Origin: Candidatus Aenigmatarchaeota archaeon
GTDB taxonomy: Archaea; Aenigmatarchaeota; Aenigmatarchaeia; CG10238-14; SpSt-28
DNA length: 35,297 bases
Reading direction: 5' to 3'
Assembly (NCBI GenBank): GCA_044343155.1
Contig: JAVZSS010000003.1
Coordinates: 1 to 35,297 of the forward strand
Shown here: in pieces, positions 5,949 to 19,881 of the stretch
How positions within the stretch are numbered: the stretch's first letter is position 1
How the letters are laid out: every line of letters begins with the position of its first letter
Notes under the pieces: generated by a model
The model's input: only the letters and a program-made list of their open reading frames with translations
The model's database searches: none
Told to the model about the DNA's origin: nothing
Position numbers and translations under genes: made by a program

Positions 5949-8900
5949 TTAAGCTGGTTCTGCTTCAGCTTTTGGAATATCTTCAGGTAAACCTTTCCTT
6001 TTTCTAATTGATTTAATTACTTGATCCCTTAGCTCATTTGGTAATTTTTCAAATACTATATCTATTAGGCTATAGAAACCTCTTCCGCTAGTTAAAGACT
6101 TTAATTTTGCGTCAAAACCGAAAAGCTCACTAACAGGTACCTTAGCTATTAATGCCATAGTGTCTCTTTCTTCATTCATTTCTAAAATATTTCCTCTTCT
6201 ATTTTCTATTTCTCTAGACACTATCCCCATATATTCGTTTGGTATATCAATTCTCAAAATTTGTTTTGGCTCTAACAAAGTTGCGTCTGAGAGCAACATA
6301 GCCTGCCTTATAGCATATCTGACTGCTGGCATTATCTGTCCTGGGCCTCTATGAACAGGATCTTCGTGTAGCTCAGCATCTACCAACTTAACTTTTAATT
6401 TAATACATGGCTCTCTAGCTAAAGGACCATCTTCCATAACCTCTTTAAATGCATCTTTAATCATTTCCATAACTTCTATCAAAAACTGAACTCCTTTGGT
6501 TAAATCTATGAAAACGTTTTTGTTATAGATTAGCTTAACATTATATGCGTCTTCGTGATTCATTCCAGCTTTTTCTAAAGCTTGGAATAGCTCGACGTTT
6601 TTCTTTTTAACTTCTATATTACTCGGTATAGTTCCTTCCCTCATTGCTTCATAAACACTATCTTCTAAAGGTTCAACAATAAAGTAAAGTTTATTGTGCT
6701 TATTTGGTGACTTTCCTTCAACCATAGGTGATGGTTTGAATATGGTTTCTCTATAAACTACTATTGGTGGTGACATTTCAACATCAATTCCCATATCTTT
6801 AAGCTTATGCTCAACTTTAATTTCTAAATGAAGTTCTCCCAAACCAGAAACTAAGTATTCTCCAGTTTCTTGATTGATTTTAACTAATAGTGTTGGATCT
6901 TCTTTTCCTATCTTTCTCAAAGCATCAACTAATTTTGGTAAATCCATCGGATTTTTTGGCTCTATTGCCTTTGTAACTACAGGATCAAACAAATGTTTAA
7001 TTTCGGCAAAAGGCTCTATAGGATATTCTGCATCACAAATTGTTTCTCCTGTAAATGCTTCTGGTATACCGACAATTGCAACAACATTACCTGCGGTTAC
7101 TTCCTCTACAGGAATTCTATTTATTCCTTTAAATATAGCTACTTGCTGGACTCTCTCCTTTCTTTTAGAATTAACAAGTAGAATTTCCTTACCTTTAAAT
7201 ATTTTTCCGGAAAATATTCTAGCTGTAGCTACAAAACCTACATGCTCATCTGGAATCATTTTAGTTACTATAGCAGCTAATTTACCATTAGAATCACAAG
7301 TCAGCATTTGTTTTCCAATCTCACTTTCTATATCTCCTCTCCAAATTTTTGGCACTCTGTATTTTTGGGCTTCTATTGGGGATGGTAAATGTCTTACAAT
7401 CATGTCCAAAACTACTCTATGCAAAGGTGCTTTTTTTGCTAATTCTTCTTCTCTACCTTCTAAAGTAAGTTGAATTACTTCTTTTAATGTAACACCACTT
7501 TTTTGTAAAAATGGTATCGATACTGCCCACCTTTTAAATGCACTTCCTATTGCAACACTACCATCTTTAACACTTACTAACCATTTATCCTTAAATTCTT
7601 CTGGGCAATGTTTCTGAATTAAAACATTAACTTCTTTAATAATTTTTTCAAATCTTTCCATCATTTGTTCTGGTGTTAATTTAAGCTCTTTAATCAATCT
7701 ATCGGTCTTATTAATAAAAAGAACAGGCTTAACATATTCTCTCAAAGCTTGTTTAAAAACTGTCTCTGTTTGTGGCATTATTCCTTCTACAGCATCAACC
7801 AAAACTATTGTTCCATCCGCCGCTCTCATTGCTTTAGTAACATCTCCACCAAAATCTACGTGTCCGGGGGTATCTAAAAGATTAATTAAATAATCTTTGC
7901 CTTCATATTCGTGAACCATGCTAACGTTTGCCCCATAAACTGTTAGTTGTCTTTTTCTTTCTTCAGGATCGAACCAAGTATACATAACTTTTCCTGCCAT
8001 TTCTTCTGCAAGCATTCCTGCCCCAGCCATTAAATTGTCAGTTAGAGTTGTATTATGAATAAAAATACCATTTGCAATAAAGTTATGAGTTTTTTCTACA
8101 GTAAAATCATAAACATATTCTTCATTCTTAACTTTTCTAATTTCTGAAATTTCTAAAGCAATTACAGGATTTTCTGAAATTTGAATAAAAGAATTTAAAT
8201 TAAAAATTTTACTAATACTTGCATTTTCATACAATTTTAACAAGCTTTTTTGTTTATATTCAACATCAAAGTTTATAAAATTCAAAAATTTTTCCAAATC
8301 TTTTCTTCCAGAAATACTTAGAGAATATTCTTTAAACACTTTTCCATTCAACCTAACATCTTTTTCTCTTATATAAGAAAGACAACCAAACCTTAATAAT
8401 AATAATTGAAGATTTCCTACTGCTTTTTCACTTGCAGATGAAATACTAACTTTTTGATGCACAAAACCATCTGTATCAAAATACCCTTTGATGAAATTCG
8501 AAACAAAACTCTTAGGTAAATTGAACAAAATCGTTGGAATTTTTAGATTTCTTGCTTTTGCCTTTAACGGATAATCGAATAATTTATTTAATAAAAACTT
8601 TAAAGTGAATCCACCATTTATATATACACGCGGACATTTATTTTTGTACTTTCTTAAAGAACATGTAATTCCTAACACTTTTTCAGAAATTTCTTTAACT
8701 CTATTAATTAAAAATTCGTTTTTGTTATCAAAAGTTAGATTAACACTTCCGTCTCCAAAAAGTAAACCCAACAAGTAAAAAAATTCTTTAAATTCACTTT
8801 CATTTTTCGGTAACTTAATTTTTTTTGAAGTCCTAGCTCCAAATCTCCTTAGGCCTTTCCTATAGGATAAATATGCTATGTTATTATAAACATCAGCAAG

Positions 8901-9614
8901 TTTTATTCCAAAAAGTTTAGCAATTTTTACTAAGTCTGCTAACCTATATCTATTTTTCCAAACACCATGGTAAAACGAAAGCATAGGAATTTTGGAATTT
9001 ATTTTCTCCCATACTTCTCTTCTACCATAATTAATTATTTTTTGATGTAAAGATTTTCCAAAATCTTCAAATAAATAAGCTAAAAAACTATAATCTTCTG
9101 ATAATCTTTCCAAGAATTTTTCTTTTATGGTATCTAAATCCATTGAGGAATTTGGTATGATTGCTGGAAGAACTAATTTATCACCAGTTCTCAAATTTCT
9201 TGCTTCAATCTCAACAATTTCACCATTTTTTAAAACAAGAAATTTATGTTCCGGGGTAACTTTAACTTTTCTACCATCTTTTACCTTTATTTCTAATAAG
9301 ATATCATCATTTTTTATTTTCCAAATGTGTGTTAATTTGCTTTTAGAAATAGAACCATTATTATAAGTTAAAGCATATAATTCATCTAAAATTTCATATA
9401 CTTCTTCGCTTTCTGTTTTTCTCACTAACTTACCAAAATTTTTTAACATATTGAATAAGTTTTCAGCAGTTACGGTTTCTTTTTCTAAAAATATTAAAGC
9501 ATCCCCACTAACACATTTTCCATGATGAACATGACTACTTGTAGCTACATTTCTAATTCTATTGGGATCTTTCATACATTCCATTACTCTATCAATCATC
9601 TTTTTTTCTGCCAT
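5949..9614 (-). CDS. fusA: Translation elongation factor EF-2, intein-containing (733 aa after splicing)
   Basis: DTPGHVDFGG, NKTD, GLGELHLE, HEDPVHRGPGQ diphthamide loop; 488-aa insertion in G1. Confidence 0.98.
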   Translation of the reverse strand: MAEKKMIDRVMECMKDPNRIRNVATSSHVHHGKCVSGDALIFLEKETVTAENLFNMLKNFGKLVRKTESEEVYEILDELYALTYNNGSISKSKLTHIWKIKNDDILLEIKVKDGRKVKVTPEHKFLVLKNGEIVEIEARNLRTGDKLVLPAIIPNSSMDLDTIKEKFLERLSEDYSFLAYLFEDFGKSLHQKIINYGRREVWEKINSKIPMLSFYHGVWKNRYRLADLVKIAKLFGIKLADVYNNIAYLSYRKGLRRFGARTSKKIKLPKNESEFKEFFYLLGLLFGDGSVNLTFDNKNEFLINRVKEISEKVLGITCSLRKYKNKCPRVYINGGFTLKFLLNKLFDYPLKAKARNLKIPTILFNLPKSFVSNFIKGYFDTDGFVHQKVSISSASEKAVGNLQLLLLRFGCLSYIREKDVRLNGKVFKEYSLSISGRKDLEKFLNFINFDVEYKQKSLLKLYENASISKIFNLNSFIQISENPVIALEISEIRKVKNEEYVYDFTVEKTHNFIANGIFIHNTTLTDNLMAGAGMLAEEMAGKVMYTWFDPEERKRQLTVYGANVSMVHEYEGKDYLINLLDTPGHVDFGGDVTKAMRAADGTIVLVDAVEGIMPQTETVFKQALREYVKPVLFINKTDRLIKELKLTPEQMMERFEKIIKEVNVLIQKHCPEEFKDKWLVSVKDGSVAIGSAFKRWAVSIPFLQKSGVTLKEVIQLTLEGREEELAKKAPLHRVVLDMIVRHLPSPIEAQKYRVPKIWRGDIESEIGKQMLTCDSNGKLAAIVTKMIPDEHVGFVATARIFSGKIFKGKEILLVNSKRKERVQQVAIFKGINRIPVEEVTAGNVVAIVGIPEAFTGETICDAEYPIEPFAEIKHLFDPVVTKAIEPKNPMDLPKLVDALRKIGKEDPTLLVKINQETGEYLVSGLGELHLEIKVEHKLKDMGIDVEMSPPIVVYRETIFKPSPMVEGKSPNKHNKLYFIVEPLEDSVYEAMREGTIPSNIEVKKKNVELFQALEKAGMNHEDAYNVKLIYNKNVFIDLTKGVQFLIEVMEMIKDAFKEVMEDGPLAREPCIKLKVKLVDAELHEDPVHRGPGQIMPAVRYAIRQAMLLSDATLLEPKQILRIDIPNEYMGIVSREIENRRGNILEMNEERDTMALIAKVPVSELFGFDAKLKSLTSGRGFYSLIDIVFEKLPNELRDQVIKSIRKRKGLPEDIPKAEAEPA
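8052..9515 (-). mobile_element. Intein with LAGLIDADG homing endonuclease in the EF-2 P-loop
   Basis: Starts CVSGD after HGK; block B VTPEHKF; LLGLLFGDG and FIKGYFDTDG; ends VYDFTVEKTHNFIANGIFIHN followed by Thr. Confidence 0.97.
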
Positions 9615-9691: not shown

Positions 9692-10294
9692 CTATCTAGC
9701 TCCTTCAGCTTCTTTTTCTATTCTTTCCTTTTCTCTTATGGCATCGCTTTTACTAGCATCGTTATTATAAGCAGCAATAATTTCATCAACTAAGGCATCA
9801 ACCATATTAGCTTTCTTACCAAATGCTTTCCTGTATGCAGCTTGAGCTATATGTCTTAAAGCTAAATCTACTCTTCTTTGTGGTGAAGTTATAACAGCTT
9901 TTCTAACTATTATTCCACCAACTTGATAAGCTGCTATTTCTTCTCTTAGGGCAGCATTTTCTAAAGCCCTAACAAAAACTTCAAGTGGATTTTTTCCTGT
10001 AATTTCATGAATTTTATCAAAAGCCTTTTCCACAATTTTATAAGTAGTTTGCCATCTGCCAACAACTCTTCCTGAAGTTAGAACATGTTTTTTTGATTTG
10101 TGACCTGGGACCATTAAATGAGTAATTAATCTTTCCACAATATTCATTTTTGACTTATGGAATTGGTATTTTGCATATCTCCCGCAAGATTTTGGAATTA
10201 TCTTTGGTGTTAAATTAATATATCTTTCTAAACCCGGATCTTCAACTTTAACATTATAATCCCATTTTCCAAATAATTTAATATTCTCTTCCAT
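9692..10294 (-). CDS. rpsG: 30S ribosomal protein S7 (uS7)
   Basis: KLFGKW, IVERL, NPLEVFVRALENA, SPQRRVDLAL; str-cluster position. Confidence 0.97.
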   Translation of the reverse strand: MEENIKLFGKWDYNVKVEDPGLERYINLTPKIIPKSCGRYAKYQFHKSKMNIVERLITHLMVPGHKSKKHVLTSGRVVGRWQTTYKIVEKAFDKIHEITGKNPLEVFVRALENAALREEIAAYQVGGIIVRKAVITSPQRRVDLALRHIAQAAYRKAFGKKANMVDALVDEIIAAYNNDASKSDAIREKERIEKEAEGAR

Positions 10295-10299
10295 AAAAT

Positions 10300-10722
10300 C
10301 TACCTAGCTGGCTTCTGTTTTTTACCTTTTAATATTTCACTAAGAGCAACTCCATTAACTGCTATTACTTTATACTTTATACCTACCATGCTTCCTTTAG
10401 ACCCTCCTTGGCCACCACCAACTTTAGCTATTATAACTTCATCATGCTCATTAATTTTATCAATAGCCCCAACACCAGGAACATGTGCAGTGACTTGTAA
10501 ATTGTTTTTAATAAGTTGAACCCTAACACATTTTGTTAGTCCAGAAGCTGGCTTTCTTTGCTCAACTGCTCTTTTTTCAATAACAATTCCCCTAGCCATT
10601 GGTGCCCCTTCTAATGGATCTTTTTTCCAAAGCTCCAAAGCTCTATACCTATAGCTAGAGCTGGACCATCTAAATTTTTTTCTATTTTGTCTCAACTTTC
10701 TACCAGCAAATTCTCCTGGCAT
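10300..10722 (-). CDS. rpsL: 30S ribosomal protein S12 (uS12), divergent
   Basis: [28 protein letters not shown]; str-cluster position. Confidence 0.96.
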
Positions 10723-11126
10723 TATCTAACCACCACATTATCAACACCGTAGTTCCTTTTCAAAATTTTTCTTAGAGCATTTATATTTCTTCCATTCTTA
10801 CCTATAACTTTACTTTTATATAAATTATCAACACTTATTTCAACAATTTTTTTATCCTTCTCGTTTCTTATTTTAATCTCTCTAACATTTTTAATCGAAG
10901 ACTTTAAAAATTCTATGAGATTTGGATTATAATTAAATATAACTATCTTTTTTTTCATCATATTCTCCAAAGTTCTCAACACACCATTATTTTCAATTTT
11001 TTGATGACTATCAAGAAGAAAATAGATACAATCTTCAAAAATTAAACAATCTTTAACACTTAAATGTGTAATAGACTCAAATAAATGTATCATTCTTATC
11101 GTTTCTGTATCTAAGGTAATTTCCAT
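10722..11126 (-). CDS. nusA: Archaeal NusA-like KH-domain protein
   Basis: LFESIT...VKDC N-terminus, [11 protein letters not shown] motif; between L30e and S12. Confidence 0.9.
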
Positions 11127-11136
11127 TTTTACACCT

Positions 11137-11388
11137 CTAAGCTTTTATTGCTATTACTGAAATAGGATATGGCTTTCCACATATAGTTCCCATTTTTTTA
11201 CTTCCTTCTTCAAAAATTTCAACCTTAATATTACTGTTCAAAATAGTTTTTTTTATTTTTTCTGGAGCATTATTTGCAAGAATAACTAATTCTACATTAT
11301 TATTTCTTATAAATTTTAAAACTTCCCTATACCCATAAACTATTTTATTCTCCTTCATCGCTTCTTTTATCTTCTCCACTAGACTCAT
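11137..11388 (-). CDS. rpl30e: 50S ribosomal protein L30e
   Basis: VILANNAP, MGTICGKPYPISV; conserved position after rpoA2. Confidence 0.9.
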   Translation of the reverse strand: MSLVEKIKEAMKENKIVYGYREVLKFIRNNNVELVILANNAPEKIKKTILNSNIKVEIFEEGSKKMGTICGKPYPISVIAIKA

Positions 11389-12478
11389 ATTTGCGTCCCC
11401 TCACAATTAATTCAAACATTCCTGTACCTGTTGGAACGACTTTTCCAATCATTACATTTTCAAACATTCCTTTAAGTTCATCTACTTCTCCTTTAATAGC
11501 TGCTCTAGCTAAATGTTTTATTGTTTCTTCAAAAGCTGCTCTAGCTAGAACTGAATGTTTAGCTCCAGCAACTCCATATCTTCCGATTGACATAATTTCT
11601 CCACTCCATGTCATTACATCAGCCACTATATATAAATATCTCATATTAACATCTAAACCTTGTTCTTGCATGGTTTTATATGCTTCTTTAATTATTAAAT
11701 TTCTCGCAGCCTCTATTCCAAATAACTTATAAACTTCATAAATATCATTAGAATAAGTTCTTGTTTCATCTACTTCTTCATGAGTTAAAATTTTTTCTAA
11801 ATTACTACCGAGAGTTTGAATTATCCAATTGTTTCCTTCATTTCTAACAACAGCAGCAGTTATTCCTTCTATACCCTCAACAACTATATTCAAAATATCA
11901 TCTTTCAATTTTTGTAACTCTATTACACCAATCCCCTCTCTATTTTTTAACTCAACTATAATTTCTTCATCTTTAATCTTAACCTTTACATTCTTTATTT
12001 TTTCTTCAATAATTCTAGAAACCTTTTCACTTTTTCTTTTATCTTTTAGTTCTATGTTAATTGAATAATTAAACAAATCCAAAGAAACTTTTTTTGATAA
12101 ATCATAAATCTTTCTTTCTATAATCTTATTTGCAAATTCCTCTGCTTTCTCTTTACTATTCCATTCCTTTTTTAAGTATATTGTCATCATTGGGGTTTCT
12201 ATTTTTTTCTTTGCATCAAATATTTCAATAAGTCTTGGTAATCCTAATGTAACCTTTATTCCTAAACTACCCGCTACATGATAAGTTCTCATTGTTAATT
12301 GAGTTGCTGGTTCCGCAATAGTTTGAGCAGTTAATATACCTATACTTTCACCTGGCTCAAACCTACATTTCATATATTCTTTTTTCACTTCTTCAATTAG
12401 CTTTTTTCTTTGATTCTCATTTAAATTAAACTCTTGACAAACTTTTTCTATTTCTTCCAAAATTTTCTTAGGCAACAT
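11345..12478 (-). CDS. rpoA2: RNA polymerase subunit A'' (Rpo1C)
   Basis: EPGESIG..AQTIAEPATQLTMRTYH, TLGLPRLIE, SVLARAAFE, ENVMIG...GTG. Confidence 0.97.
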   Translation of the reverse strand: MLPKKILEEIEKVCQEFNLNENQRKKLIEEVKKEYMKCRFEPGESIGILTAQTIAEPATQLTMRTYHVAGSLGIKVTLGLPRLIEIFDAKKKIETPMMTIYLKKEWNSKEKAEEFANKIIERKIYDLSKKVSLDLFNYSINIELKDKRKSEKVSRIIEEKIKNVKVKIKDEEIIVELKNREGIGVIELQKLKDDILNIVVEGIEGITAAVVRNEGNNWIIQTLGSNLEKILTHEEVDETRTYSNDIYEVYKLFGIEAARNLIIKEAYKTMQEQGLDVNMRYLYIVADVMTWSGEIMSIGRYGVAGAKHSVLARAAFEETIKHLARAAIKGEVDELKGMFENVMIGKVVPTGTGMFELIVRGRKYESSGEDKRSDEGE

Positions 12479-15400
12479 TTAAAATCCTCCTCGCTATTTC
12501 TCTTACATTAATTTCTCCTCTAGATACTTTAGAAGGATCTAAACCATCTTCACCAGGAATAAATTGAATTATTCTATTAGCAGAATCTCTAACAGTACCA
12601 TCATAAGCTACTTTAAGATCTTGTAATGCTCCAACTAGTCTTCTTTCCATATATCCAGAATGTCTTGTTTTGAGACTTTTATCCATTAAGCTTTCTCTAG
12701 AGTTCATATTATCAAAAAAGAACTCAAAAACATTTAATCCATCTTTGTAGCCTCTTGCAACAAAACCCTTAGCAGCTAGACTCTTATCATCTAACTTAAA
12801 GTGTGGAAAAGTTCTTCTATAATATCCTCTCTCTATTCTTTTACCCATTATCATTTCTTGACCAATCAATGCACACATTTGTAGTAAGTTAACCATTCCT
12901 CCTCTTGCTCCACATTTTATCATATCTAAAACTTGAGACGGCTTTACCGCTTTTTCAAAGACAGAAGTAACTTCATTTACACAACTTGCAATTCTTTCTT
13001 TAACCATATTTTCTAAGAATTCTTCACCAGCTTTTCCAATCAAGATTGTTAATTCTCCCTTTTTAAACTTTTCAATTATCTCATTCACATCATTCTCAGC
13101 TTTTTCTATAATTTTTTTAATCTCCATTTTTACATTATGCTCAATATCAAGTTCATCTATACCAAAAGTAAGGCCAAACAAATCTAAATAGTTAATTGCC
13201 AGTATCGCTGCTTTATATATAAAATCTTTAGTAAATTTTTTTCCATAATCTTTTTCCATTTTATCAATAATCTTTCCTCCGTCAGCACTAATTCCACTTT
13301 TTTCAATCTCACCTTCTATAAGTTGACCGTTAACAATTTTAACCATTCCTGTTTTTCCTTTATATTCAATAGAAAAATCTTTAGGTAAAAGTAAACTAAA
13401 AACTTCTTTTCCAGTAAACCATTCTTTATTTGGGATTTCTATATTTTGATCAACACTCCTTATAAGCTTTACAACATCTTCTCTTCTTAATCTAACTCCA
13501 TCTTTTGTTAACAAATATAAACCTGTGATTTCGTCTCTAATTAAACCAATAATAGCTGACGAATATCTAGGACTTCTTATATTTTTTTCTACAGAAGCCA
13601 AAATTTCTATCTCTGCTCTAGCTTCTGCTGTTTGAGGAATATGTAAGTTCATTTCATCTCCATCAAAATCTGCATTATACGGTGTACAAACTGCAACATT
13701 TAATCTAAATGTTTGATATGGCATTACTCTCACTTTATGGCTCATCATACTCATTCTATGTAAACTAGGTTGCCTATTAAAAATTGCTATATCTCCATCA
13801 ATCAAATGTCTTTCAACAACATAACCTATATCCAACTCCTTAGCAATTTCTTCCTTATTACTTTCCATAATCTTTTTTCTTCTTCCATCTGGCTTTATAA
13901 CATAATTTGCACCCGGCCAAATATTTGGTCCATTCAATACATATTTTCTTAATTCCTCTATATTTTCTGCAGTAACTTTTACAGGAACTGTTAGCTCTTT
14001 TGCTATAACTAAAGGTACGCCAACTTCATCCACTCCAATTCTAGGATCTGGTGAAATAACTGTTCTTGCAGAAAAATTAACTCTTTTTCCTAAAAGATTA
14101 CCCCTAAATCTTCCTTCTTTAGTTTTAAGTCTTTGAGTTAAAGCTTTTAAAACTCTTCCAGATCTATGTCTTGCTGGTGGTACACCAGTTAGTTCATTAT
14201 CTATATAAGTAGCTACATGATATTGTAAAAGTTCCCATAAATCGTTTAACAAAAATTCTGGAGCACCCAATTCTAAATTTTCTCTAAATCTATCATTAAT
14301 CCTAACTATTTCAACCAATTTATGTGTTAAATCATCTTCACTTCTTTCTCCAGTTTCTAATGTTATAGAAGGTCTAACCGTTACTGGAGGTATAGGTAGA
14401 ATAGTTATAACTAACCATTCGGGCCTACTTTTTATTCCAAGGATTTCTAAATCTTCATTTGTAATTTTTTCTAATCTTTCTCTAATTTCAATAGGATTTA
14501 GTACTTTATTTCCTTCAACAAAAGTATAGGGTTTTATAAAATCAATATTTTTTTGCTCCGTTTTACAATATGGACATTTTTTTGATATATACTTATTTAT
14601 TTCACTCCAAGAAATTTTCTTTTTCTTTAATTCTTCCAATTTTTCTTTTTCTATAAGTAACCTACTACATTTTCTACATATTATTTGAAGTAAAAAGTGA
14701 ATAAACTTGGAATAGTGCGGATGTATTACAGGCTTTACTAACTCCAAATGACCAAAATGACCTGGACACTCCCCAATATTTCCTCCACATACTCTACATC
14801 TTATTGATGGCTCTATAGTTCCTAATCTCGGATCCATTATTCCTCCTTCAATTGGATAACCTTCTTCATCATAAATATCTATTTTTGTTATTTTTGCAAA
14901 AGACATCTTCATTATAGTTTCAGGATCTAGTATTCTAAACTCTATTTTTGTTATTTCTCCTTCTTCATCAACAACTAACTTCGGATAAATTAACATACTT
15001 TTTAACTCATCTAACATTAGTTTAAAAGCATAACTCATTTCAACAACAACTATTTCTGCTTTATCTCCATCAATAGGACAAAAATATCTGTTTTTTATTT
15101 TATCATGAACTGCAACCATACCACATTCTCTACAAATAGGTAAAGCAATTTTATCAGAATCAAATCTTTCTTTTAGTGTTAATACAGCACCATGAGCTAA
15201 TAAACAATCTTTTTCCATTTCACCCAATCTTAAACCACCTTCTTTACTTCTTCCTTCTGTTGGTTGTCGTGTTAAAAGTGTAACTGGTCCGCGTGCTCTT
15301 GCTTGAATTTTATTTGAAACTAAATGGTCAAGTTTCATATAATAGGAGCAACCAATAAATATCTCAACAAGAAACTTTCTTCCCGTCTTCCCATCATACA

Positions 15401-16766
15401 TAACTTCTTTTCCACTCTCTTTAAAACCTAGTCTTTTAAGCGTTTCCCTAAGTTCTTCTTCTCTAGTTGGATTAAAGGCGGGAGCATCTATGAATCTAGC
15501 AGATATTGCACCCACTTTTCCGCCTAATATTTCTAAAAGTTGACCAACAGTCATTCTACTTGGTAGTCCGTGGGGATTGAAAATTATATCAGGAATTATT
15601 CCACTCTCTGTAAATGGCATATCTGCAGGATCAGCAACTAATCCAATAACTCCCTTTTGACCATGTCTAGATGCAAACTTATCACCAATTTCTGGTTTTT
15701 TAAGGTCTCTAACAACAACTTTAACTAATTTTGTACCGTCTGCTGTTTGTGTTATATAAACTCGATCTACAAAACCTTTTTCTGCATGCCTCATCCTAAT
15801 AGAGGATTCCCTTAAATTTTCAGCTCCAATTAAAAATTTCTCACTTTTACCTAAAAATCTTAATGGAGAAGTTCTCCCAATTAAAACTTGATCAGAAGAA
15901 ACATAAGTTTCAGGATTTACTATCCCATCTTCTGGTAAATGTTTATATTCTTCTTCACCAGCATAACCCCTTATACCAGGTTGTGGAATACCAATAACAT
16001 CTTGCTGTCCTCCCATGTAAATTTTTTCTTCAGCTTCATATGTTCTAAACATATAACTCCAAAACATTCCCCTTTCAAGGGAAGCTCTATTTATTACAAT
16101 AGCATCTTCTATGTTATATCCTTCAAAAGTAGCTATAGCAACAACAACATTAATACCATGGGCATATTCATCTGAATTAGAAATTTTGTTTATATATGTT
16201 TGAACTATAGGTTTTTGAGGATATACCAAAATGTTCGACTTACTATCTACTCTACTTAAAAAGTTGTGAGCAAAAACACCAATAGCTTGATCGTTCATCT
16301 TAGAGCCATAATTAACTCTATCTCCTCTATTAAATCCTGGATATGGAACAAAAGACGCAGAAAAACCAAAAATTACAGCAGGATCTATCTCCAAATGAGT
16401 ATGTTCTTTTGTAACTTCATTTGGATTGACAGCTATATATGTATTTTCTTCTTCTTCCGTATCAAGAAATTCAATTATTCCGTTTTTAACTAAATCAAAG
16501 AATGTTAATTCTCCTTTTTTCACTTTTTCTAAAATTTCGGGTGTTAATTTTGGTTCACCATTTTCAACTATAATCAATGGTCTAATAACTCTTCCTGCAG
16601 AAGATAGTATTCTTACTTCATCCAAATCTTTATGATAAGCAATATTTACCGTATACGGAATTTTCCCCTCCCTTCTCAATTTCCTGAATTCTTTTACAAA
16701 ATCCTCAGGATTCTCTATTCTTCCTAAATATTTTCCGTTTAAAAACAAATCAGCCACTTTTTTCAC
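12468..16766 (-). CDS. Fused RNA polymerase subunits B' (Rpo2C) and A' (Rpo1N)
   Basis: Residues 1-599 contain GYNIEDA, GDKFASRHGQKG and GLRLGEMEKD. Residues ~605-1432 contain CPGHFGH, GKRVNFSARTVI, NRQPSLH and YNADFDGDEMN. Single open frame. Confidence 0.93.
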   Translation of the reverse strand: MKKVADLFLNGKYLGRIENPEDFVKEFRKLRREGKIPYTVNIAYHKDLDEVRILSSAGRVIRPLIIVENGEPKLTPEILEKVKKGELTFFDLVKNGIIEFLDTEEEENTYIAVNPNEVTKEHTHLEIDPAVIFGFSASFVPYPGFNRGDRVNYGSKMNDQAIGVFAHNFLSRVDSKSNILVYPQKPIVQTYINKISNSDEYAHGINVVVAIATFEGYNIEDAIVINRASLERGMFWSYMFRTYEAEEKIYMGGQQDVIGIPQPGIRGYAGEEEYKHLPEDGIVNPETYVSSDQVLIGRTSPLRFLGKSEKFLIGAENLRESSIRMRHAEKGFVDRVYITQTADGTKLVKVVVRDLKKPEIGDKFASRHGQKGVIGLVADPADMPFTESGIIPDIIFNPHGLPSRMTVGQLLEILGGKVGAISARFIDAPAFNPTREEELRETLKRLGFKESGKEVMYDGKTGRKFLVEIFIGCSYYMKLDHLVSNKIQARARGPVTLLTRQPTEGRSKEGGLRLGEMEKDCLLAHGAVLTLKERFDSDKIALPICRECGMVAVHDKIKNRYFCPIDGDKAEIVVVEMSYAFKLMLDELKSMLIYPKLVVDEEGEITKIEFRILDPETIMKMSFAKITKIDIYDEEGYPIEGGIMDPRLGTIEPSIRCRVCGGNIGECPGHFGHLELVKPVIHPHYSKFIHFLLQIICRKCSRLLIEKEKLEELKKKKISWSEINKYISKKCPYCKTEQKNIDFIKPYTFVEGNKVLNPIEIRERLEKITNEDLEILGIKSRPEWLVITILPIPPVTVRPSITLETGERSEDDLTHKLVEIVRINDRFRENLELGAPEFLLNDLWELLQYHVATYIDNELTGVPPARHRSGRVLKALTQRLKTKEGRFRGNLLGKRVNFSARTVISPDPRIGVDEVGVPLVIAKELTVPVKVTAENIEELRKYVLNGPNIWPGANYVIKPDGRRKKIMESNKEEIAKELDIGYVVERHLIDGDIAIFNRQPSLHRMSMMSHKVRVMPYQTFRLNVAVCTPYNADFDGDEMNLHIPQTAEARAEIEILASVEKNIRSPRYSSAIIGLIRDEITGLYLLTKDGVRLRREDVVKLIRSVDQNIEIPNKEWFTGKEVFSLLLPKDFSIEYKGKTGMVKIVNGQLIEGEIEKSGISADGGKIIDKMEKDYGKKFTKDFIYKAAILAINYLDLFGLTFGIDELDIEHNVKMEIKKIIEKAENDVNEIIEKFKKGELTILIGKAGEEFLENMVKERIASCVNEVTSVFEKAVKPSQVLDMIKCGARGGMVNLLQMCALIGQEMIMGKRIERGYYRRTFPHFKLDDKSLAAKGFVARGYKDGLNVFEFFFDNMNSRESLMDKSLKTRHSGYMERRLVGALQDLKVAYDGTVRDSANRIIQFIPGEDGLDPSKVSRGEINVREIARRILNVA

Positions 16767-18240
16767 CTCTCATTAAATTTTTTATTATTGGCATTAACTG
16801 TTTTTCTTCAACTTCTGTAGTTATAGATGCAGAAATTGCCAAATATTTTCTTAACCCAATATTAGCACCTTCTGGAGTTTGAGTCGCACAAAGTTTACCA
16901 AAATGAGTGGGATGTAATTCTCTTGCTTCAAAATGTTCTTGAGCTGAAGAAAGCGGAGAAACTACACTTCTCATATGAGTAATTGTTTTTGTCCAACTAC
17001 TTCTTTCTAACCTTTGAGTAACTCCAGTTCTACCTCCAATCCAAGTTCCAACTGCCATAGCAGAGACTATTTGATTTGTTAATATCGTACTTTCAACAAC
17101 AGATTGTAATGGTGGTAACTTACCTTTTTTAGTTAATTTTTGGTAATTGTAATTCATCCTAACAACTAAACCCCACTTCCCTAAAAGAATTGACCTTAAT
17201 AATAATTCTAGCAAATCTCCGGACATTTTAATTCTTTTGTTTGAATAATGATCGACATCATCTTCTTCAATTAATCCAAAATGTAGTCTAATCATTTTTT
17301 CTATAGCTTTAGCTAAGAAAAATGCTTTTGTTAACCTATTTTCTGGCTCTTGTCCTAAATGAGGTAATAAATATTTGTCAATCATCTTTACTGCTTGTTT
17401 CCTTCTAACACTCTTTTGTGGTATCTTTAAAAATTTTCCAAGCTCATCTAAAGCTTCGTTTGAATCTTTGATAGGATATTCAAACACATTAACTAAAAAC
17501 GCTTCTTGAATTCTTTCATCTAGAGAAATAGCTTCAATTAAATCTTTATCCCTTTCTAAACCAAGAGCTTTTAATATTATTACAATTGGTATTCTTAAAA
17601 CATTTGCAAAAGTTATATAAATTTCTCCAGTTCTTTTTCTTTCAAGCAAATGTTTCTGAATAAATCCTTCTTTTTCTGAATGAATTCTCGCTTTTTCTGT
17701 AATTGAACCTTCGCTTGATTTTTCAACAATTATTCTATCAGTAGCTATTTCTTCAACTAGCATTAAAATCCTTTCAGTTCCATTAATAATAAAATAACCA
17801 CCAGGATCATTAGGATCTTCTCCAGCTTCGATTAACTCTTTTTCACTCATTTTAGAAAGAAAACAATATTTTGATTTTACCATAATTGGTAAATCTCCTA
17901 TTTCAACCATAATTGGTTTATTTTCAATTCCATTTAAAATTTGAGTCATTTCTACGTACATAGGTGCAGCATAAGTTAAATTTCTTATTCTTGCTTCAGA
18001 TGGTAAAATAGCTCTAACAGAACCATCTGCTTCCTTAACCCTAGGATAACCCAACTCAAATTTTCCTAATTTTATTTCAAGTTCGCCAACTTCTGGCAAT
18101 TCAGGCCTAATTTTTCCTATACTTTTAATTATTTTTGGTATTCTTCTTTCTACAAAATCATTAAAAGATTCTATCTGAAAATTAACTAAACCTTTTTCTT
18201 GTAAATAGGATTTCATTAATATTGGAAATGCTTCATTCAT
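16750..18240 (-). CDS. rpoB2: RNA polymerase subunit B'' (Rpo2N)
   Basis: QIESFNDF, EARIRNLTYAAP, DPGGYFIINGTE, TPEGANIGL. Confidence 0.97.
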   Translation of the reverse strand: MNEAFPILMKSYLQEKGLVNFQIESFNDFVERRIPKIIKSIGKIRPELPEVGELEIKLGKFELGYPRVKEADGSVRAILPSEARIRNLTYAAPMYVEMTQILNGIENKPIMVEIGDLPIMVKSKYCFLSKMSEKELIEAGEDPNDPGGYFIINGTERILMLVEEIATDRIIVEKSSEGSITEKARIHSEKEGFIQKHLLERKRTGEIYITFANVLRIPIVIILKALGLERDKDLIEAISLDERIQEAFLVNVFEYPIKDSNEALDELGKFLKIPQKSVRRKQAVKMIDKYLLPHLGQEPENRLTKAFFLAKAIEKMIRLHFGLIEEDDVDHYSNKRIKMSGDLLELLLRSILLGKWGLVVRMNYNYQKLTKKGKLPPLQSVVESTILTNQIVSAMAVGTWIGGRTGVTQRLERSSWTKTITHMRSVVSPLSSAQEHFEARELHPTHFGKLCATQTPEGANIGLRKYLAISASITTEVEEKQLMPIIKNLMRGEKSG

Positions 18241-18483
18241 CTAATCTCCCCTTTCAATAACAACTCTATAATAAACTGTTTCTCCACTAATTTCACTCTT
18301 TCTTATAATTTTTATAACATCTCCGGGCTTTGCTCCTAACAACTTTACTTGTGGATCATTAGAAAATATCCTAGGAAAATTCTTTAAAGAGCCGTATGTT
18401 TCAATTAACTTCTTTTTCTCTTCTTCACTAACAATTTCATGCTTAGGAACTAAGAAATGCTTAGAAACATCTATTTTTTTCAT
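18241..18483 (-). CDS. rpoH: RNA polymerase subunit H (Rpo5)
   Basis: HFLVPKHE, PRI..NDP, GDVIKIIRKS, YYRVV; ATG 18483 preferred. Confidence 0.96.
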   Translation of the reverse strand: MKKIDVSKHFLVPKHEIVSEEEKKKLIETYGSLKNFPRIFSNDPQVKLLGAKPGDVIKIIRKSEISGETVYYRVVIERGD

Positions 18484-18547
18484 TTCCCCACCCAATTTAA
18501 TATTTAGCAGCTAAAATTTTAAATGATTTAAATATTTATAAATTTAT

Positions 18548-19570
18548 CTATAGCCCATATTTATAAAGAGTAGATTCTTCAGGCTTAACAATCCATCTAT
18601 CAACTTTTCTATTTATATTTTTAAGTATGACTATTCTTGCACTCTCATCTTCATCCATATATTCAAACTCTTCTAGATTTTCTTTCAATTTATTCATCCA
18701 TTTTTTTATTTCCTCTAAAGTTACCATATTTTCTTCTTTTAGCTTAGATTTAGAATATCCAACGTGCATATAAGATTTAATTTCAACAAAATGTGGATTT
18801 GCTTTTTTTATTAATTCTGCAAAACCTTTTATTTCTTCAAAATTATCGTTTATTCCTTTAATTAATGTAATTCTAATAACCGTTCTAGTTGATATTCTAG
18901 AAATTAATTCTAGACTTTTATTAAATCTTTCCCAAGAATCTTTAAGAAGAGGTACGTTTACTTTTTTAAAAGTTTCATAATTTCCAGCATTCATCGAAAG
19001 ATAGAGTTGGGTTGGGAGAGAATTTTCTTTTTCCAATCTTTCCAACATTTCTGGCTCTTGACCATTAGTAACTAAGAATATAGATTTTGTTAAACGTAAA
19101 GATTTTAAATATCTAATCATTTCCGGCAATTTTGGATAAAGTGTTGGCTCACCCATTAAAGAAATTGCAAAATGTGTTGGTGTTTTTGATTCTTCATACA
19201 ATTCTCTAATAACTTTTTCATTTCCTCCAAAACCAGTAAGCAACTGATTTCTTATTTTTAGTAAATTCTCAATTATTTCCTTAGGATCATCTACTTCATC
19301 TTCTCCCATTTTTATTGTTTCATAAAATTCTGTTGGCCTCCAACAATATACGCATCTATTATGACAATACAAACCTGCCGGAGAAAACTCCATACATCTA
19401 TGCGTCTCTACCCCAAAAAATTTTCTTTTGTAACAAACTTTTTCTCCTTTTAGAGACTTTTTAGTATAATGGCATATATCAACTACAGAATGACCAAAAA
19501 CTCCATACTGGGCTTTTTTTAATTTTTTCTTAAATTCTTCTCCAATTCTTAATTTTTCCTTTCCTTCCAT
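18548..19570 (-). CDS. taw1: 4-demethylwyosine synthase (TYW1/Taw1 radical SAM)
   Basis: CYKRKFFG..HRC, CHNRCVYCWR, HFAISLMGEPTLY, EIKSYMHVG. Confidence 0.94.
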   Translation of the reverse strand: MEGKEKLRIGEEFKKKLKKAQYGVFGHSVVDICHYTKKSLKGEKVCYKRKFFGVETHRCMEFSPAGLYCHNRCVYCWRPTEFYETIKMGEDEVDDPKEIIENLLKIRNQLLTGFGGNEKVIRELYEESKTPTHFAISLMGEPTLYPKLPEMIRYLKSLRLTKSIFLVTNGQEPEMLERLEKENSLPTQLYLSMNAGNYETFKKVNVPLLKDSWERFNKSLELISRISTRTVIRITLIKGINDNFEEIKGFAELIKKANPHFVEIKSYMHVGYSKSKLKEENMVTLEEIKKWMNKLKENLEEFEYMDEDESARIVILKNINRKVDRWIVKPEESTLYKYGL

Positions 19571-19605: not shown

Positions 19606-19881
19606 ATGGAAGTTATTAGAGTTATTGTTCATGGTAAAGTCCAAGGAATTGGGTATAGAAACTTTGTAAAATCTTACGCAAAAATGTTGGGTTTAAAGGG
19701 ATATGTTAGAAATCTACCGAAAGATAAAGTAGAAGCTGTATTTGCTGGAAAAAAGGAAGATATAGAAAAAATAATAGAAATAATGACAACTTCTCACCCT
19801 TTAGCAAAAATCACAAAAATTGAAAAAGAAAGACTAGATGTTCAAGAAATAAACTTTAAAGATTTTGAAATTCTTTTTTAA
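19606..19881 (+). CDS. acyP: Acylphosphatase
   Basis: GKVQGIGYR and GYVRNL motifs. Confidence 0.94.
   Translation: MEVIRVIVHGKVQGIGYRNFVKSYAKMLGLKGYVRNLPKDKVEAVFAGKKEDIEKIIEIMTTSHPLAKITKIEKERLDVQEINFKDFEILF

Follow-up and report, generated by a model that had tools for sequence, protein, structure and literature searches.

A natural B'-A' fusion of RNA polymerase subunits in Candidatus Aenigmatarchaeota: real, inherited and evolutionarily unstable

In a stretch of 35,297 nucleotides (nt) from a Candidatus Aenigmatarchaeota archaeon (the window, by which we mean this whole stretch), one open reading frame (ORF) encodes both B' (Rpo2C), the C-terminal half of the second-largest subunit of RNA polymerase, and A' (Rpo1N), the N-terminal part of the largest one. 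We consider it highly probable (about 0.8) that this is a genuine, inherited gene fusion giving one chain of about 163 kDa, with a joint made by a small mutation and close to neutral in its effect. Judged from its sequence, this chain would combine the two double-psi barrel motifs of the active centre with the two pieces of the clamp core. This natural fusion adds an archaeal case to the known fusions of large polymerase subunits; it is real, inherited and evolutionarily unstable.

One frame for B' and A'

The ORF listing gives a single minus-strand frame at 12468..16766, with 1432 codons from a GTG start; residue numbers are counted in this frame from the GTG at 16766. The translation at the joint reads ...SMLIYPKLVV-DEEGE-ITKIEFRILDPE... 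and is free of stops, as is its wider context, LKSMLIYPKLVV DEEGE ITKIEFRILDPETIMKMS. By Pfam, residues 8-598 correspond to Rpb2_4, Rpb2_5, Rpb2_6 and Rpb2_7 (expect value, E, of 7e-127 for Rpb2_6), and residues 604-1413 to Rpb1_1, Rpb1_2, Rpb1_3, Rpb1_4 and the first 67 profile positions of Rpb1_5 (E 2e-85 for Rpb1_1), all these matches being far above the curated cut-offs. The B' part thus has Rpb2 domains 4-7 in order, with GQKG (residues 369-372) in the hybrid-binding domain 6. The A' part has Rpb1 domains 1-4 and the start of domain 5, NADFDGD (residues 1031-1037) and the clamp-core zinc motifs CRVCGG, CRKC and CPYC (within residues 657-734), whose Cys/His columns are invariant across 54 sequences. 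Both barrel motifs share one frame, in which the end of the second-largest subunit runs without interruption into the start of the largest one, the arrangement that defines a fusion of the beta-beta' type.

These results confirm what an earlier note on this DNA had described: a 1432-amino-acid (aa) B'-A' frame with neither a stop nor an in-frame Met at the joint, GQKG and NADFDGD in the same frame, and a B''/B'A'/A'' layout. Both splits are indeed kept, B'' (16750-18240) and A'' (11345-12478) being separate genes by Pfam. The note had named no strand for its frame 12468..16766; the frame holds, on the minus strand, and its start is probably at 16757. This second in-frame GTG (residue 4), which would give a protein of 1429 aa, is the more likely true start, because GAGGTGA stands 5 nt before it, it makes an overlap with the B'' stop, and 1429 aa is the length of the closest database relatives. 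GAGGTGA resembles the Shine-Dalgarno consensus. The copy of the protein in ESM Atlas also begins at residue 4. The polymerase features of the window are as follows.

18241..18495, minus strand: rpoH (Rpo5), first gene of the cluster (Pfam RNA_pol_Rpb5_C, E 8e-27)
16750..18240, minus strand: rpoB'' (N-terminal half of Rpo2), a separate gene with Rpb2_1, Rpb2_2 and Rpb2_3; its TGA stop (16752-16750) overlaps the start of the next gene
16763..16769, minus strand: GAGGTGA, Shine-Dalgarno-like by sequence reading, 5 nt ahead of GTG 16757
12468..16766, minus strand: fused rpoB'-rpoA' frame, 1432 codons from GTG 16766 or 1429 from GTG 16757
14970..16766, minus strand: B' part, residues 1-599, with Rpb2 domains 4-7; GQKG at 15651-15662
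14955..14969, minus strand: joint D-E-E-G-E, residues 600-604, with no in-frame ATG, GTG or TTG
12468..14954, minus strand: A' part, residues 605-1432, with Rpb1 domains 1-5 (first part of 5); NADFDGD at 13656-13676; TAA stop at 12470-12468
12485..12491, minus strand: AGGAGGA, strongly Shine-Dalgarno-like by sequence reading, 6 nt ahead of the A'' ATG
11345..12478, minus strand: rpoA'' (C-terminal part of Rpo1), separate, overlapping B'A' by 11 nt (Rpb1_5 profile positions 67-265, E 1e-46)

A joined frame might result from an error of assembly, binning or sequencing, for instance a base lost in an A-rich run that masks a real stop or frameshift; the joint is indeed A-rich, and the window's genome (G000) is a fragmented metagenome bin of 0.61 Mb in 34 contigs, 86% complete. 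However, Logan contigs of four runs from four studies, aligned to 14500-15450, are concordant. The joint is bridged without any difference by the contigs of runs X1 and X6 (14850-15236) and X7 (14909-15138), and with two substitutions by that of X9 (14904-15264), one of them, at 14955, changing GAA to GAT (E to D). No insertion or deletion is listed in any of the four runs over 14500-15450, and no stop appears in 14955-14969. The window itself may stem from one of these runs; the runs containing the window sequence are all labelled hot springs metagenome, with no RNA run among those listed. The joined frame moreover occurs in 62 genomes and in at least 120 database protein clusters (90% identity; NCBI, JGI, ENA, Logan), with joint lengths of 12, 15, 18, 21 and 24 nt, all multiples of three. 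Error as the source of the joint is effectively refuted, and the earlier argument against a sequencing slip is borne out. With the fused protein as query, the 86%-complete G000 gives a single match, so that no second gene for B' or A' was detected there.

The composition of the joint is explained by the native ends of the two subunits. In unfused relatives, B' ends in ...IYPK-x-x-[VL]-x-E-[ED]-stop and A' starts with M-x-[VI]-x-[KR]-I-E-F, 0-10 nt after B' or overlapping it (GAATGA). In the window, V-V-D-E-E is the tail of B' itself and E-I-T-K-I-E-F is the start of A' minus its Met; therefore, only Gly603 occupies the place of the former stop and Met. The DEEGE linker of the earlier note is thus correctly sited at 14955-14969, but it is not an added spacer, being mostly native B' tail. 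A 15-nt joint, [VI]-[DN]-[ED]-E-G-[EKR], is common to all nine genomes of the genus, and the Gly codon is GGA, GGT or GGC, so that the residue has been kept through synonymous change.

Inheritance and changes of state among relatives

Separate B' and A' genes in all close relatives, which the earlier note had proposed as a finding that would speak against a fusion, were looked for, and all nine genomes of the window's genus proved to be fused, down to 78% identity in the protein. With 9/9 genomes of the genus and 62/370 of the phylum, the fusion is inherited by a lineage and is not a single-assembly event. One genus member, G003, differs from the window at only 25 of 7296 nt; it is nearly the same strain and hence not an independent witness. 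These two loci (L001 in G000, L002 in G003) are classed as belonging to different species despite this near identity; G003 is 58% complete in about 130 contigs, and the two bins may share a population.

When 40 related genomes were searched and the junctions extracted and read in frame, 39 had a match: in 26 of them a single frame, free of stops at the joint, holds B' and A', and in the other 13 the two are separate genes in different frames. The '1 stop' recorded for G027, G033, G015, G009, G012 and G016 was considered as a sign of an in-frame unfused gene and rejected, as it is the terminal stop of the fused gene.

The search was extended to the window's order (117 genomes, 112 with a match) and to the class and phylum, which are the same 370 genomes (NCBI label Candidatus Aenigmatarchaeota). 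A 160-aa piece around the joint is matched at E <= 1e-10 in 343/370 genomes. At E <= 1e-45, where only single-frame, joint-spanning matches are left, and with stops tallied from the listed rows, 106/370 genomes have such a match, the remaining genomes with a match being out of frame. Of these, 62 are fused without a stop, 44 of them belonging to the window's order and 18 to others; in the other 44 genomes, the single frame is interrupted between B' and A' by one or two stops. The in-frame-stop genomes (e.g. loci L044-L046, L056, L062-L064, L110-L115 and L119) use TAA, TAG and TGA, and such loci are one point mutation away from fusion.

Other orders also contain fusions of an unsplit B to A', as frames of 1916-1941 aa without a stop at the joint (G136, G121, G118, G170, G129, G123, G127, G128 and G194), and database proteins of 1909-1924 aa combine Rpb2_1-7 with Rpb1_1-5. 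Loci L100-L104 and L109 and proteins P0097-P0124 are of this unsplit-B kind. A frame of 2291 aa with one in-frame TAG surrounds the joint at G227:C18:8047-8526 (minus strand), and may be a longer joined arrangement that includes A''.

In public databases, 190 proteins among 522 candidates match the joint region at E <= 1e-20, and the best 120 of them all carry, as far as read, both PF04560 and PF04997. Joined proteins are annotated merely as "DNA-directed RNA polymerase subunit A'" or "subunit B", and the matches are assigned to Candidatus Aenigmatarchaeota or Aenigmarchaeota archaeon, apart from one labelled Woesearchaeota and one plain "archaeon". In one protein, P0225 (1025 aa, ENA metagenome contig), what follows the ...IYPKLVLGEK of B' is not A' but about 420 aa of unrelated, Lys-rich sequence containing CxxC motifs.

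A phmmer search with the 160-aa joint against 1.84 billion cluster representatives gave 352 matches at E <= 1e-10. Among the best 150 of these, the joint is crossed by only three, namely P0010 (1428 aa), P0125 (153 aa, a fragment resembling those of family f8) and P0144. The last is a poor-quality singleton of 141 aa named 'hypothetical protein', 42% identical and without a lineage label; its joint is longer and rich in Ser, and its contig measures 2.2 kb. The fusion was thus not found outside the phylum among the best 150 of 352 representatives, behind which fused members may sit; this says little about its absence elsewhere, because the known 1911-aa forms are also missing among the representatives. 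The nearest ESM Atlas clusters with Rpb2_7 and Rpb1_1 are Campylobacterota fragments with scores of 0.86 and 0.84, below the 0.9 level, and are leads only.

The distribution of the fusion among relatives was further assessed at 119 loci, chosen from listings and so giving no frequencies, of which 117 could be classified: 55 are fused, 14 have an in-frame stop and 48 are out of frame (44, 7 and 46, respectively, among the 97 loci of the window's order). The two unclassified loci, L095 (G107) and L098 (G043), have no detectable B' end. Odd open frames of 1390-1395 aa were seen in G078 and G107, and the former (L094) is scored out of frame.

Trees were built from B' residues 1-590 and A' residues 616-1425, the joint being excluded. 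With FastTree on 112 rows (L038, L039, L096, L106 and L116 were dropped for short matches), 18 changes are required to account for the fused label, and starred branches force 16 of these; shuffled labels need 37.4 on average, and none of 500 shuffles is as low as the observed value. With IQ-TREE (quick mode, LG+G4) on 110 rows, the long rows L105 and L037 being also excluded, 17 changes are needed, of which 16 are forced. Genera are mixed in several cases (g15, 2/11 fused; g17, 2/9; g18, 1/3), and the genus of the window forms a clade (support 100) in which all members are fused. On these rpo trees this genus (g1, family f1) has a long stem and lies closer to families f2, f3 and f6, without grouping with its fellow f1 genera g2 and g3, either as a tree artefact or because the history of the rpo cluster differs from the taxonomy.

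The junctions themselves show how frames can be joined. Unfused junctions read ...AAG GAG GAG TAA A ATG... or ...GAA GAATGA AAG..., and the last K/E/E codons of unfused B' hold GGAGG-like motifs just upstream of the A' ATG. Three routes to fusion were found. In the first, the stop between two in-frame genes is lost (L056, ...GAA TAG AAA ATG, vs its fused neighbours). In the second, small insertions or deletions occur in an A-rich overlap, as in GAAGAATGA, out of frame, vs GAAGAAATGAA, fused with its Met kept (L018, L020, L059 and L061). The third is that of the window's genus, where a single Gly codon stands for stop and start, in a joint of 15 nt vs 19-20 nt in unfused relatives.

These observations suggest a mechanism. 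Across the phylum, rpoB' and rpoA' lie end to end or share a few bases, and the final codons of B' (K-E-E, AAGGAGGA...) also serve as the ribosome-binding site of A', so that one small mutation, either a point change in an in-frame stop or an insertion or deletion of 1-4 bases in the short A-rich junction, suffices to join or part the frames. The joined chain would function because the C-terminal strand of B' already lies beside the N-terminal strand of A' in the clamp, where a turn of few residues could link the two subunits. Such a change is probably close to neutral, so that the state has flipped many times. In the window's genus, the fused state is fixed and the A' start signals are lost, so that the enzyme would have to contain the fused chain.

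Translation and structure of the joined chain

The start signals of A' were compared in the 24 nt before its start in 62 unfused and 55 fused loci. GGAG or GAGG is found in 41/62 unfused vs 12/55 fused loci (random-window background, 0.11), GGAGG in 14/62 vs 0/55, and an ATG at the old A' start in 60/62 vs 12/55, a contrast that is descriptive only because related genomes are not independent and the Fisher p overstates it. No ATG, GTG or TTG is present at the joint in any of the nine genomes of the window's genus. As an internal control, the split sites retained in the window operon keep their signals, GAGGTGA with GTG for B'A' and AGGAGGA with ATG for A''. The loss, in most fused loci, of both the ribosome-binding motif and the ATG of A' fits translation of the two parts as one chain.

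Alternatively, the usual subunit set could be kept, A' being made separately by an internal non-canonical start near a remaining AGGAG, or released by cleavage at the acidic linker. The window joint does retain AGGAG (GAAGGAGAA), with ATA codons and no start codon after it, and an in-frame ATG survives at the former start of A' in 12/55 fused loci, all of them outside the window's genus. However, this Shine-Dalgarno-like relic is not conserved within the genus, the motif being lost in 5/9 members (4-mer test), none of the nine offers one of the three start codons at the joint, and the first in-frame Met after it lies beyond the N-terminal strand of A'. In addition, the joint is predicted to be a compact hairpin (see below) and not a disordered, cleavable spacer. 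Two separate proteins therefore appear very improbable.

The structure of the joint was predicted by AlphaFold2 on residues 429-800, with an alignment of 54 fused sequences. The model, an out-of-context fragment built from fused sequences only and poor at model residues 44-109, has a mean predicted local distance difference test score (pLDDT) of 70 and a predicted template modelling score of 0.64. At the joint it consists of a strand at 593-599 (IYPKLVV), a loop at 600-604 (DEEGE) and a strand at 605-612 (ITKIEFRI), in a block with a pLDDT of 89-92. The joint is thus predicted with confidence to be a beta-hairpin, which agrees, as a prediction only, with the hairpin turn proposed in the earlier note (strand-loop-strand, pLDDT about 90).

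The best sequence match in the PDB is chain A of 3QQC (E 3.6e-51), and the alignment passes from B' into A' with no interruption but a gap of one residue at the joint. It is also the best fold match (E 8.5e-24, template modelling score 0.59), with 285 aligned columns vs about 222 for A' chains alone. 3QQC is described as an engineered Pyrococcus furiosus clamp made of B 1053-1115, A' 3-318 and A'' 334-371 with short Gly/Ala/Ser linkers, a single chain that was soluble, correctly folded, able to bind Spt4/5 and crystallised (Martinez-Rucobo et al., 2011, PMC3094117). This clamp is an experimental precedent for exactly the same joint, and it supports the adjacency of the two termini at the clamp that had been put forward before. 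The likeness is limited: the chain is joined at exactly the same B-A' place, but it is an artificial clamp fragment that includes A'' residues and is no working polymerase subunit, and when the two are aligned its joint exceeds the natural one by one residue.

Besides the non-independence of the genomes and the fragmentary model, several points weigh against the fusion as we read it. Translation as one chain is deduced from DNA, AGGAG persists in the window joint, although no start codon follows it, and the joined chain may be cleaved after translation. Near-neutrality is read from the repeated flips, and selection differing between lineages would give the same pattern. Finally, Fitch parsimony with other orders as outgroup gives an ambiguous state at the root of the order; we therefore speak of changes and not of gains or losses, and call neither the fused nor the split state ancestral.

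Known fusions, possible advantage and meaning

The closest natural analogues are bacterial. The earlier note had named beta-beta' fusions in Helicobacter and Wolbachia, and PMC7483510 indeed states an rpoB-rpoC fusion for Helicobacteraceae and Wolbachia, citing Zakharova et al. (1999) and Lane and Darst (2010). In the bacterial and the archaeal case alike, the second-largest subunit continues in frame from its C-terminus into the N-terminus of the largest, at the homologous place of the clamp; the fusion arose where the genes were adjacent or overlapped, and it is passed on within a lineage. They differ in that the bacterial fusions join two whole subunits, whereas both archaeal partners are fragments of split subunits, so that the chain borders B''/B'A'/A'' no longer match the subunit borders. 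The archaeal state is also highly unstable among relatives and its origin is independent: the fusion works like beta-beta' but does not share descent with it, because unfused relatives exist within the same order, family and genera, with 16-18 changes of state.

Within the archaea, the whole-B-A' fusions of other Aenigmatarchaeota orders have the same joint and, B being unsplit, are the direct counterpart of beta-beta'; the window differs by its separate B''. The split-B''/B' form of the rpoH-rpoB-rpoA'-rpoA'' operon (methanogen and halophile type) has the same gene order, domains and neighbours, and has one stop and start pair that the window lacks. Pacearchaeota offer another change of a large-subunit border in a DPANN archaeon, a secondary re-fusion of A' and A'' reported by Da Cunha et al. 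(2017, PMC5484517), who term such events rare; there the border lost is A'/A'', whereas the window keeps that split and loses the B'/A' one. No report of an archaeal B'-A' fusion was found in PMC open-access papers and bioRxiv, supplements and subscription journals being outside the reach of the search.

It could be asked whether the fusion is advantageous. A B'-A' tether would enforce 1:1 stoichiometry and speed or stabilise assembly of the clamp and active centre, which could benefit a host-dependent cell that is very small and poor in chaperones, or be of use at hot-spring temperature. This would add to the inherited, small-mutation fusion and not replace it. In keeping with such a role, the state is fixed across a genus whose members go down to 78% identity in the protein, the linker is kept through synonymous changes, the fused label is strongly clustered on the tree (0/500 shuffles as low), and the hot springs label of the runs suits the temperature argument. 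Nevertheless, at least 16-18 changes of state among 110-112 close relatives, the mixed genera (g15, g17) and the similar genome sizes of sister genomes with and without the fusion speak against such a role, and H. pylori is reported to be viable when its beta and beta' genes are separated. An adaptive benefit is therefore rather unlikely, and we favour a fusion that is probably close to neutral.

A bolder and quite speculative proposal, to which we give little credence, is that the B'/A' border is an evolutionary toggle with three positions (out of frame, in-frame stop and fused). One chain with both catalytic barrels, and B'' and A'' as separate outer modules, would then be a living intermediate between single-chain two-barrel and multisubunit polymerases. 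Readthrough of the stop in the 44 in-frame-stop genomes might even mix fused and unfused enzyme and make the covalency of the subunits a regulated property.

The fusion has consequences beyond this lineage. Archaeal RNA polymerase is a model for eukaryotic Pol II, and the borders of its subunits have served as rare phylogenetic markers (changes of this kind are described as rare in PMC5484517). Because the B'/A' border has been erased or restored at least 16-18 times within the phylum, such borders are unsafe as markers in fast-evolving DPANN lineages. Annotation pipelines mask the fusion by naming the protein plain "subunit A'". The protein is also a natural single-chain module of clamp and active centre for structural and assembly work, and the matched fused and unfused sister genomes provide material to ask whether covalent tethering of the large subunits matters.

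The surroundings of the fused gene are conventional. The order rpoH-rpoB-rpoA'-rpoA'' followed by L30e, NusA, S12, S7, EF-2 and EF-1alpha is the usual archaeal cluster; in the window, the neighbours are EF-2, EF-1alpha and the following genes.

11137-11388, minus strand: L30e
10722-11126, minus strand: NusA-like KH protein
10300-10722, minus strand: S12
9692-10294, minus strand: S7

Upstream of rpoH are a radical-SAM gene for wyosine formation (TYW1/Taw1-like; 18548-19570, minus strand) and, on the opposite strand, an acylphosphatase gene (19606-19881, plus strand). The EF-2 gene (5949-9614, minus strand; 1221 aa) is interrupted at the start of its GTP-binding domain by an intein of about 445 aa, with an Intein_splicing domain and a LAGLIDADG_3 homing-endonuclease domain (residues 370-447).

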